Shown: piece by piece, positions 4,915 to 13,816 of the stretch | How positions within the stretch are numbered: position 1 is the first letter of the stretch | Layout of the letters: every line of letters starts with the position of its first letter | IMG/VR virus record: IMGVR_UViG_3300017766_000201 | Location: 1 to 27,416 of that record | Reading direction: 5' to 3' (one strand) | Source of the DNA: a virus | Lineage: Duplodnaviria; Caudoviricetes | DNA: 27,416 bases | Program-made: the position numbers and the translations under genes | Notes under the pieces: generated by a model | The model's input: the letters and a program-made list of their open reading frames with translations, nothing else | Told to the model about the DNA's origin: nothing | The model's database searches: none

Positions 4915-4931
4915 CTGCAACAATTAGATAT

Positions 4932-4984
4932 AAAAAAAAGCCCATTAAGTTTCGTGGTTGCAGCACTACTCCTCAATGGACTTT
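4932..4984 (-). terminator. intrinsic terminator / attenuator in the initiator leader
   Basis: AAAGUCCAUUGAG pairs with CUUAAUGGGCUUU (13 bp, 2 GU pairs) around a 22-nt loop, ending in a U8 tract about 17 nt before the ATG. Confidence 0.7.
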
Positions 4985-5018
4985 CAATAATGTTTTTAAT
5001 GGGTCTGCAACACCCTTA

Positions 5019-5026
5019 CAAAGATA
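5019..5026 (-). promoter_or_regulatory. putative -7 promoter element for the initiator leader
   Basis: TATCTTTG fits TAnnTTTG. The nearest upstream TTTG is only 12 nt away, so the -33 element is doubtful. Confidence 0.5.
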
Positions 5027-6440: not shown

Positions 6441-6603
6441 TCTCTTCGATTTTATCTAAAATGTTTACTAATGCACCCCATTGCGCTTGGGTGTGTAGCG
6501 TACCTCTGTCATCATAGCCAAACCATCTACGTTGTTCCTGAAGCTCTGCGTAAAGCTCTCTTTCTTCGTTGAAGATTAGTTCTAAAATTTCTTCTTTTGT
6601 CAT
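6427..6603 (-). CDS. first early gene, hypothetical (58 aa)
   Basis: Start MTKEEIL at 6603 with AACGCTATG context, directly after a promoter. The longer track ORF overlaps that promoter. Confidence 0.7.
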   Translation of the reverse strand: MTKEEILELIFNEERELYAELQEQRRWFGYDDRGTLHTQAQWGALVNILDKIEENENN

Positions 6604-6627
6604 AGCGTTGTTTTTAAATGTTATATG

Positions 6628-6657
6628 CAAATATATAGATAAGGTTTCAATTATCAA
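6628..6657 (-). promoter_or_regulatory. Bacteroidota housekeeping-sigma promoter (main early)
   Basis: TTG-N19-TATATTTG. 6601-6635 matches 275-309 at 33 of 35 nt. Confidence 0.75.
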
Positions 6658-6727: not shown

Positions 6728-6936
6728 TTTAAGGCTTTACCCTTATATAAAGTCAGTTTTTATGCATTTTTTAAGCCTATAACCTTACGATTTGGGTACT
6801 TTGTTTAAGGCTATAACCTTTATTTTCTATACATAAGCCGCCCAACGTGTATAGATTTTGCGATTTTCTATACATAACGTACCCGAAAAGGTGTAAAAAT
6901 TCAACTATAAAGTGGGATTATACCCGATTAGGTATA
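6728..6936. repeat. non-coding cluster of short semi-palindromic repeats
   Basis: TTTAAG(G/C)CT(A/T)TA(A/C)CCTT at 6728, 6770 and 6804. ATTTTCTATACATAA at 6822 and 6863. TACCCGAnnAGGTrTA at 6880 and 6921. Confidence 0.7.
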
Positions 6937-6947
6937 CTATATTAAAC

Positions 6948-6973
6948 AAAAAAGCCCCCGATTAAGGAGGCTC
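6948..6973 (-). terminator. intrinsic terminator ending the late/lysis operon
   Basis: GAGCCUCC-UUAAUC-GGGGGCUU running into a U6 tract. Confidence 0.8.
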
Positions 6974-7000
6974 TTACGCTATGAATAGTGGCAGGTGTCA
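6948..7000 (-). ncRNA. candidate ~50-nt antisense sRNA
   Basis: TATATTTG element at 7001-7008, then UUCAUAGCGU (complement of early start regions), then the terminator. Confidence 0.45.
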
Positions 7001-7009
7001 CAAATATAA

Positions 7010-8041
7010 TCAGAATATGTGACTTAAACGTGCAATTTGTCCGTGTTTTTTATGATGCAGGAATCCTTCGATAGCTTTCGGAGCGTGCTGATAGCCTGAA
7101 CGGTGATGCCAGCTATCAGTTCCTGATGCCGAGCGCAATGATTCAACGGTTACTCCTTGATAGTCTTTGGATAGTTTGTGGTGAACGTGGTGCATATAAA
7201 CATACCTGTGCTTTGTCAAGCTCCAATCCATAGGAAACTCGGTAGCCAATAAAAGCGGAAGATCCTGCTGCTTCGCTCCATCTCCGTGAGTAGTTCCGAT
7301 TAGGTTCTCTCCGTATCGATAAGCCTTGCGATGTTGAAGAGAGCAGTCGAAAGTAATGTTTGCAGCTTGACGAAAATGTGTTTTGATACAATCAGCAAGA
7401 AAGAATCCGTGAGTGTAATCGTGGTTAGAAGGATTGAACACAAAATGCACATCAGCCAAAGCAATGAGTTTTTCAAGAATCTCAACATATAATTGTTTTG
7501 CGGTTAAAAAATTACGATACCACATCCCATCCGTGTCTTGTGGAGTGCCTGACGTGGTAGTTCGTCTCGGAGTATCTATGTGTAGAATGTCGTTTCCACC
7601 AACGAATAGAATCTTATCTATATGAAAGCCTGCCGACTTGTCTAAAATGCCTTGTACACCCTCTAAAACGCGTTGTACGGCTATTTGAGAGTTGTATTCT
7701 TCACCAGTTTCAAATGCATCGCATAGTTTTCCTATGTGGATGTCAGCAGGGTCTATGACTAACAAGTGTCCTTCTTCGCTTTGGGTTCGTGTTAACGTAG
7801 GATAAGACGGAGAATGCTCGGCAATGGAGTTGATTAGCTCATCTTTAAACTCGTTGAACTTGTCTTGTTGTCCGTTGAAGTTTGGATTTTTAAAGAATAG
7901 TGATGCCTCTTTGTTTTTTATCCATCCGTGTTTGACGTCCTTTTCGTCTAACCCGAGTGAGTTAGCTTCTTTTTTTATCGCTCTGTACTGATTGACTATT
8001 TCTACTTCGTCAGGTTTTAAGCGATAGCGTGTTTGTTTCAT
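7010..8041 (-). CDS. calcineurin-like metallophosphoesterase
   Basis: DIHIG, GNDILH, SNHD, HGD and HHVHH metal-binding motifs. Confidence 0.8.
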   Translation of the reverse strand: MKQTRYRLKPDEVEIVNQYRAIKKEANSLGLDEKDVKHGWIKNKEASLFFKNPNFNGQQDKFNEFKDELINSIAEHSPSYPTLTRTQSEEGHLLVIDPADIHIGKLCDAFETGEEYNSQIAVQRVLEGVQGILDKSAGFHIDKILFVGGNDILHIDTPRRTTTSGTPQDTDGMWYRNFLTAKQLYVEILEKLIALADVHFVFNPSNHDYTHGFFLADCIKTHFRQAANITFDCSLQHRKAYRYGENLIGTTHGDGAKQQDLPLLLATEFPMDWSLTKHRYVYMHHVHHKLSKDYQGVTVESLRSASGTDSWHHRSGYQHAPKAIEGFLHHKKHGQIARLSHIF

Positions 8042-13212: not shown

Positions 13213-13237
13213 AAAAAAGGCAGACCGAAGCCTGCCC
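13213..13237 (-). terminator. intrinsic terminator after the tail tube gene
   Basis: GGCAGGC-UUCG-GUCUGCC then U6 (cUUCGg tetraloop). Confidence 0.9.
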
Positions 13238-13258
13238 TTTAACGCTATGAAAAAAAGA

Positions 13259-13816
13259 TTAAGAAGCAACGATGGTAGTAGTCGCACCAAATACGCTACC
13301 TGCACCAATTAGACCTGCTTCAGAAGTTGCATCAAGTAGATTGGCAAGGATTTTTTCAGTGCCTACAAACGTCAATGTATAACCAACCATATCGCCCATT
13401 GCAACACCATTTGACACGTTAGCAGTAGTCAACTCCATTCCGTGTTCTAAACCTGCAAGGAAGAATTGGTTGTTACGTGTTTTGATTACTACGTTAGGAC
13501 GTCCGTAAGACAATAACTTAACCGTCTTGTGAGTTGCAGCATCTTGTTTCTTTAAAGTAACTGACAAAGTCTGCTCTACAAATGAAGTTCCGTTCTCACG
13601 TGAAGTTGTGATAACTTGGTCAAAAGAGTTCGTTCCTTTAAGTTGGTATTTGTAAAGTGAAGTTACGTTAGCAATTGCATCAATTGTGTCAGTTGTAGAA
13701 ACGTAAGTTATGTCAGTTGCAGAGTTGTAGTCTCCGTAGTTAATAAAGTAGATAGCGTCAATACCGCCTACTACGTCCTTACATACTTCTAATCTGCCTG
13801 TTGTTATTTCGCACAT
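13259..13816 (-). CDS. major tail tube protein
   Basis: CKD.VGGI..IYF, SRENGT.F.EQTL...L and GYTLTF.G.E pattern. No sheath gene nearby. Confidence 0.7.
   Translation of the reverse strand: MCEITTGRLEVCKDVVGGIDAIYFINYGDYNSATDITYVSTTDTIDAIANVTSLYKYQLKGTNSFDQVITTSRENGTSFVEQTLSVTLKKQDAATHKTVKLLSYGRPNVVIKTRNNQFFLAGLEHGMELTTANVSNGVAMGDMVGYTLTFVGTEKILANLLDATSEAGLIGAGSVFGATTTIVAS

Follow-up and report, generated by a model that had tools for sequence, protein, structure and literature searches.

A candidate small antisense RNA complementary to tagged early gene starts in a Flavobacteria-type phage

The CI RNA of phage P4 is grouped with the C4 antisense RNA of phages P1 and P7. C4 represses an antirepressor, thereby keeping lysogeny and immunity, and is made from a precursor by RNase P. 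It is encoded apart from its target sites and blocks the translation of a phage gene (PMC12197685); it has three stem-loops with a′ and b′ loops, is about 77 nt long, and differs in its specificity sequence among related phages (PMC5320573). Lambda OOP, P22 Sar and lambda aQ are short, promoter-driven phage antisense RNAs that damp one phage gene each (cII, ant and Q, respectively), and the phage sRNAs covered in the accessible part of the same review come from proteobacterial phages and mostly have a single phage gene, or host genes, as their target (PMC12197685). GibS and FopS of Bacteroides thetaiotaomicron, about 65–70 nt in length, place a single-stranded 5′ seed on the start regions of several mRNAs and repress by binding there, in a phylum without Shine–Dalgarno sequences (PMC7366714, PMC11697453). 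FopS RNAs have canonical sigmaA promoters, occur in several copies with one 3′-UTR-derived member, and often target the first gene of an operon (PMC11697453). The −7 box of Bacteroidota sigmaA has the consensus TAnnTTTG (PMC9723704, PMC7366714) and lies at −12 to −5 (PMC9723704). 

Here we analyse a non-coding unit at positions 6948–7008 of a 27,416-nt window. The window spans an entire viral contig (27.4 kb), whose genes lie on the minus strand. Judged from its sequence and that of its relatives, the unit is a real, selected element and probably a small antisense RNA gene. We found no earlier description of this RNA in the open-access literature, and the accessible part of the preprint 10.64898/2026.09.22.753630 contains nothing on this element. 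If the reading proposed below is true, an RNA of 37–62 nt would use a start-codon tag to reach an entire class of genes of the phage itself, a compact, testable expression timer for a setting that lacks Shine–Dalgarno sequences and Hfq. Such an RNA would, in addition, offer a scaffold for translational knock-down in Flavobacteria, for which the natural seed/tag pairs are built-in swap controls.

Genomic context

Read along the minus strand, the contig encodes a sigma-like factor, terminase, structural genes, an endolysin and a nuclease, followed by small genes, a replication initiator, a helicase, a C5 methyltransferase and NinG. The part missing from the window is supplied by a relative (L033), which carries ERF, exonuclease and SSB genes. 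The nuclease, termed a metallophosphoesterase in the first-pass annotation, matches phrog_704 (DNA repair exonuclease) and no Pfam family. We infer a flavobacterial host from the phage matches of the nuclease (28 of the best 30 are Flavobacterium phages, the top two Synechococcus phage S-CBS2), from a 321-aa protein whose only matches are Nonlabens phages, and from the TAnnTTTG boxes that precede early-type genes. Relatives of this phage are present in freshwater metatranscriptome assemblies. None of the 48 proteins considered (42 from the window and 6 from L033) matched an integrase, repressor or antirepressor family; many are without any family, and a remote one is possible. The earlier suggestion of an immunity or carrier-state RNA thus finds no support among these proteins.

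Architecture of the RNA unit

Behind the nuclease stop codon, the minus strand carries a box, a spacer with a C-rich block, a seed and a terminator-like hairpin that also ends the lysis–nuclease operon (Table 1). The predicted RNA folds into a single hairpin (−14.5 kcal/mol, z −2.1) with 21 nt free at the 5′ end. We found no target for the C-rich block, the complement of which has a similar frequency in cognate and other loci.

Table 1 Features of the RNA unit, the second seed copy and the predicted targets
Feature	Position	Strand	Basis or remark
Box TATATTTG, predicted sRNA promoter, Bacteroidota sigmaA −7 box (TAnnTTTG)	7001–7008	−	Sequence, conservation and literature consensus
Spacer TGACACCTGCCACTA	7000–6986	−	Sequence
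C-rich 5′ block, dispensable	6986–6996	−	Missing from short variants L027, L033 and L074
Seed UUCAUAGCGU (DNA TTCATAGCGT), complement of ACGCU-AUG-AA	6976–6985	−	10-mer matches, alignment
Intrinsic-terminator-like hairpin and U tract	6948–6975 (stem 6975–6950, T tract to 6948)	−	Sequence, fold
Predicted 49-nt RNA	6948–6996	−	Boundaries deduced; start 6996 if box at −12 to −5, 6995–6999 possible
Upstream gene, phrog_704 nuclease family	7010–8041	−	Final gene of lysis operon
Seed copy (13242–13251) in 3′ UTR of late gene, before unrelated hairpin, without promoter box	13213–13258	−
Late gene, presumed tail or head protein, phrog_19091	13259–13816
Predicted target: box (6635–6628), leader and ACGCT-ATG start (6603) of first presumed early gene, 58 aa	6599–6635	−	9-nt pairing, −13.6 kcal/mol
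Predicted target: start (1899) of C5 DNA methyltransferase, PF00145	1895–1904	−	10-nt pairing
Predicted target: box (309–302), leader and start (277) of 52-aa gene	273–309	−	10-nt pairing
Predicted target: start (72) of ERF-family annealing protein, truncated by contig end	68–77	−	10-nt pairing

The exact 10-mer TTCATAGCGT occurs five times in the window, at 68, 273 and 1895 on the plus strand and at 6976 and 13242 on the minus strand. The three plus-strand copies are the starts of ORFs 72, 277 and 1899, a further site at 6599 (start 6603) matches in 9 of 10 positions, and both antisense copies directly precede terminator-like hairpins. The sequence thus bears out what the first-pass annotation had reported, namely an antisense seed ahead of a terminator, matching three starts over 10 nt and a fourth over 9 nt. 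Its expected frequency of 0.05 for a 10-mer is close to the mean of 0.09 in 100 dinucleotide shuffles, none of which reached five copies, and the hairpins behind the two seed copies are indeed unrelated to each other. Its placement of the seed 2–3 nt before the stem holds for the G/C core, which begins 2–4 nt after the seed, but not once A–U pairs are included, as the stems then begin 0–1 nt after it. Nor is this closeness a shared trait, given that the seed core lies 12–20 nt before the stem in 28 of 66 distinct predicted RNAs.

With 21 TAnnTTTG matches on the window's minus strand, the box alone carries little weight; what matters is its conservation. A host-sigma promoter of its own, as proposed earlier, is made likely by the retention of a non-coding box and by a minimum box–seed spacing, whereas no conserved −33 element is visible. 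According to the accessible text, a −33 element could not be identified in Flavobacterium johnsoniae either (PMC7366714).

Conservation among relatives

Relatives were collected with the nuclease and the late gene as queries. The ingroup comprises 90 distinct 3′ ends with nucleases more than 70.5% identical, plus L167 (70% identity), which was assigned by hand in agreement with the tree; 32 more distant ends form the outgroup. Loci without the nuclease C terminus, with short downstream DNA or duplicated were left out of the counts, the downstream cut-off being <5 kb for the shuffle control, the reciprocal pairing and the tag and ERF counts.

The first-pass annotation had held that absence from related phages would speak against the RNA. 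A TAnnTTTG box followed by a CATAG seed lies behind the nuclease in 87 of the 90 relatives' 3′ ends and in 0 of the 32 outgroup ends, in many of which the nuclease stop is directly followed by a promoter-like box and the next gene. The same architecture is observed across the relatives. The box reads TATATTTG in 78 loci, TACATTTG in 5, TAAATTTG in 2 and TATATTTA in 2, the changes falling mainly at the two 'n' positions. Box-to-seed distances are bimodal (5–7 or 16–20 nt) and never below 5 nt, a limit that follows if the box is placed at −12 to −5; with this placement, the shortest forms would start exactly at UCAUAG. In a 24-sequence alignment, CATAGCG is invariant while its neighbours carry indels. 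The 66 distinct predicted RNAs measure 37–62 nt (median 51), and in 63 of them CATAG has a mean unpaired probability of at least 0.7. In other relatives unrelated hairpins replace the terminator, with the length range and the free seed retained. A purine is present at +3 to +5 after the box in 60 of 66, which is about chance level for three positions.

The unit of box, seed and hairpin is also kept behind inserted genes for Endonuclease VII (L024) and GIY-YIG (L040 and L079) proteins. These insertions between the nuclease stop and the unit span L024:7822–8232, L040:11059–11715 and L079:1231–1890; L164, which lies outside the domain scan that identified the endonuclease genes, also has one. About 12–20 nt resembling the nuclease 3′ end are repeated behind the inserted endonuclease genes.

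A purely late mode of action, in which the seed has no promoter of its own and works solely as part of the 3′ end of the late lysis transcript, either intact or after processing, seems unlikely to us. Such a reading would suit the second copy, which is without a box in 92 of 92 relatives, the terminating role of the hairpin in the operon, the unconserved −33 element and the 3′-UTR origin of one FopS member (PMC11697453). It leaves unexplained a non-coding TA..TTTG box that 87 of 90 relatives retain, always at least 5 nt from the seed and still together with it where genes have been inserted. In the four RNA runs analysed out of 12 listed, all with contigs of relatives, the contigs end at about 6990–7001 in three and one continues in the fourth, although contigs cannot show RNA ends.

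The plus strand of the unit is itself start-like, with ACGCT-ATG opening a 13-codon frame in the window, and could be thought to encode a small antisense ORF. This is scarcely credible, and we rejected it: across 57 distinct loci the frame ranges from 1 to 120 codons and falls in all three phases (28, 18 and 11).

Among viral contigs, 69 of 71 motif matches have the same nuclease gene upstream, one lies at a contig edge and one looks like a chance match. We found no host copy among 301 Flavobacteriaceae genomes; the pattern of box plus seed matched in two of them, where no terminator follows and the site seems to lie opposite a coding sequence. CATAG is lost at its usual place in three relatives. 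In L107 and L178, where it is absent there, the terminator hairpin has TCATAGCGTT in its loop, possibly a relocated seed; L066 and L169 have a variant of this type of terminator loop.

A second seed copy in a late 3′ UTR

The copy at 13242 is less strictly kept, with CATAG present in 58 of 92 relatives and absent in 34, and TAnnTTTG in 0 of 92. Given this looser conservation and the constant absence of a box, it is, on sequence grounds, best read as a late 3′-UTR seed. It pairs with the targets over 13–14 nt.

Covariation of seed type and start-codon tag

Among the 87 seeds, 51 are CAUAGCG, 26 CAUAGUU, 7 CAUAGCU and 3 rarer forms, and seed type matches start context across the relatives. The share of CGCT-ATG starts is 82/523 for CG-type, 13/254 for CAUAGU-type and 7/66 for CAUAGCU-type loci, against 1/165 where the unit is missing. 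The ERF start reads ACGCT-ATG in 22/22 CAUAGCG-type loci, 0/11 CAUAGU-type loci (one has TCGCT) and 0/8 in a third locus group. Because the seed classes follow clades in our quick tree, this covariation rests on about two or three independent switches and its p value of 1.6e-6 overstates it. Moreover, the base 5′ of CAU varies (U, C or A) without a matching change in the fourth target base, so the shared helix may be only 8 bp. Reciprocal pairing gave −13.5 (CG loci) versus −11.9 (T loci) for CG RNAs, and −15.1 (T loci) versus −14.2 (CG loci) for T RNAs. Being U-rich, T-type seeds would find a partner in any A-rich leader. T-type ERF leaders tend towards pairing with their own U-rich seeds, and for the RNAs of L065 and L169 the ERF leader of the same locus is the best partner. 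Within the clade, loci with a non-CG seed here and a CG late copy have 9 tagged starts out of 83 versus 5 out of 207 in other loci, a comparison that is a hint only, as the latter set contains the outgroup locus L208 and three contigs counted twice.

Orientation was counted in 33 CG-type loci. The antisense motif CATAGCGT precedes a terminator-like stretch in 49 of 52 cases. The sense motif ACGCTATG occurs 105 times, 79 of these being starts by rule; the remaining 26 were judged by reading as 19 starts, 5 non-starts and 2 ambiguous cases. At least one tagged start is present in 35 of 241 protein clusters.

These counts bear on the idea that ACGCTATG is a DNA-level site, for protein binding, nicking or a recombination cassette, with the inverted copies being further such sites or relics of inverted leader duplication. 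We give this a slim chance. In its favour, one promoter–leader cassette stands in near-duplicate at 277 and 6603, and the two box–seed spacing modes differ by about one helical turn. Orientation nevertheless follows an RNA logic, sense at starts and antisense ahead of terminators; T-type loci have another sequence that still pairs, with G–U pairs; the motif stays invariant amid neighbouring indels; and only 1 of 350 motif matches falls within 25 nt of a locus end. A nick or contig-end site was rejected on this last count, which is a loose test, many locus ends being flank cuts.

Predicted targets and pairing

The ERF assignment of ORF 72 comes from its 24 aa, which match the N terminus of an L028 protein (PF04404). 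Among 48 window starts, the four tagged ones rank 1, 3, 4 and 5 for pairing with the copy at 6976 and 1–4 with that at 13242. When the RNA upstream of five window hairpins was compared, only the two seed-bearing ones paired with the four starts (−12.9 to −19.2 kcal/mol, versus −0.9 to −8.4 kcal/mol for the others). The seed duplex itself is modest: its −13.6 to −14.6 kcal/mol does not yet include the costs of opening the seed (0.75) and the targets (0.7–3.7). Since patchy duplexes in coding regions score equally well or better (genome-wide 1st percentile −18.4), energy alone does not pick out the tagged starts. In a shuffled-RNA control, which excludes six loci, the window among them, at most 2 of 100 shuffles paired as well in 39 of 45 loci.

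An RNA that is real but has another main job, such as acting on host mRNAs, protecting or activating tagged mRNAs, or excluding superinfection in a carrier state, appears improbable to us. The complementarity of T-type seeds to generic A-rich leaders would fit a role of this kind, as would the resemblance of the clade-specific seed types to C4 specificity loops (PMC5320573). On the other side, the Flavobacteriaceae genomes sampled seldom contain the CG tag (10 matches versus 5 controls across 41 genomes), so that ACGCT-ATG is not a general host start motif. Integrase and repressor families were not found among the 48 proteins, and pairing at start codons repressed translation in the Bacteroides cases, as described in the accessible text (PMC7366714, PMC11697453).

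Near-identical promoter–leader cassettes stand ahead of unrelated small genes at 270–310 and 6596–6636, and relatives have many one-off genes behind similar leaders, which suggests that cassettes are exchanged. The ACGCT-ATG tag is also found on a 312-aa gene of L045 and L048, with an N terminus like that of the window helicase, and on the nuclease start of L009, L017, L018 and L020, where the target of the predicted RNA would include the very gene that has the RNA unit at its 3′ end.

Comparison with known RNAs

Rfam 15, a comparison already suggested in the first-pass annotation, yielded no match in the window and none at gathering score in four relatives; the C4 model in particular gave no match at E≤1 in the window and none at gathering score in the four relatives. 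The unit has the features of a trans-acting base-pairing sRNA: it is non-coding, and its predicted structure has an accessible, conserved seed and an intrinsic terminator. The seed is complementary to distant initiation regions and changes with them, through few independent switches.

The unit shares with FopS and GibS the expression system of the same phylum and, in prediction, a single-stranded 5′ seed on several start regions, and with FopS an upstream TAnnTTTG box, here a predicted promoter (87/90). It differs in being phage-encoded, in having the phage's own genes as predicted targets, in its shorter length (37–62 nt) and in that these targets share an AUG tag that shifts with the seed. 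Judged by Rfam 15, which yielded no match, it is not a member of the FopS/GibS family.

Like C4, it would be a phage antisense RNA located apart from its target sites, with a specificity sequence that differs among related phages. However, it has a single hairpin and a free 5′ seed strand in a predicted 37–62 nt, gives no sequence-level sign of processing by RNase P, and matches several unrelated gene starts instead of the ant mRNA; a lysogeny module was not found, the relevant families being absent among the 48 proteins. The unit is thus not a C4 member, given the lack of an Rfam match, its different fold and size, and the antirepressor not found. Unlike OOP, Sar and aQ, its 8–10-nt seed would act in trans on at least four starts up to 7 kb away. 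By analogy, binding likely works as in FopS and GibS, and regulation of the phage's own genes by a clade-specific seed as in C4.

Proposed mechanism

Our favoured reading, which we hold to be reasonably likely, is that the unit encodes an sRNA of about 50 nt, made by the host sigma factor, that blocks the translation of the tagged early genes and is backed by the late 3′-UTR copy. The layout of the unit, its conservation, its complementarity and the match of seed to start context are seen in the sequences, whereas promoter use, intracellular pairing, repression and timing are inferred as follows. Host sigmaA would start transcription at about 6996, and the free seed of the predicted RNA would pair across the ACGCU-AUG starts of the four presumed early genes; pairing over the AUG would likely block ribosome loading. 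The RNA and two of its four targets (277 and 6603) would be switched on together, given their common box. The stable, hairpin-ended RNA would accumulate and, once a first pulse of expression has passed, damp the early proteins (the first early gene product, the ERF recombinase and the methyltransferase). More seed would then come from late transcripts that stop at the terminators at about 6950 and about 13215–13240, completing the shut-off.

More speculatively, and in our view rather doubtfully, a lytic Flavobacteria-type phage may time its early–late switch by RNA alone. A five-letter code before the AUG of unrelated, swappable early genes would be read by the timer seed of a host-sigma minigene and by a seed at late mRNA ends, a sister U-rich seed would also act on the host's Shine–Dalgarno-free starts, and the arrangement might be a general 'start-codon tag regulon' of Bacteroidota phages.

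Other elements in the window

AACGTT lies 8–9 nt ahead of the ATG at the starts 13175, 16311, 17128 and 24286, with GCAAC or GAAAC farther upstream in three of the four; these sites are probably late promoters, recognised by the sigma-like protein of the phage (26712–27236). The spacer that separates the terminator from the first early promoter has short direct repeats (3 × 17 nt and 2 × 15 nt) at 6728–6877. The spacer is variable, with similar repeats in relatives, and is possibly an origin or packaging region. Finally, the minus strand at 4930–5026 carries, just before the replication initiator, a TATCTTTG box, GTTGCAG, its complement CTGCAAC, a hairpin and a U8 tract, and GTTGCAG is repeated in the start region of the initiator. 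This leader, which looks like an attenuator or an antisense-controlled leader, is nearly identical in L045 and L073, and 3 of 66 loci have the strict pattern.
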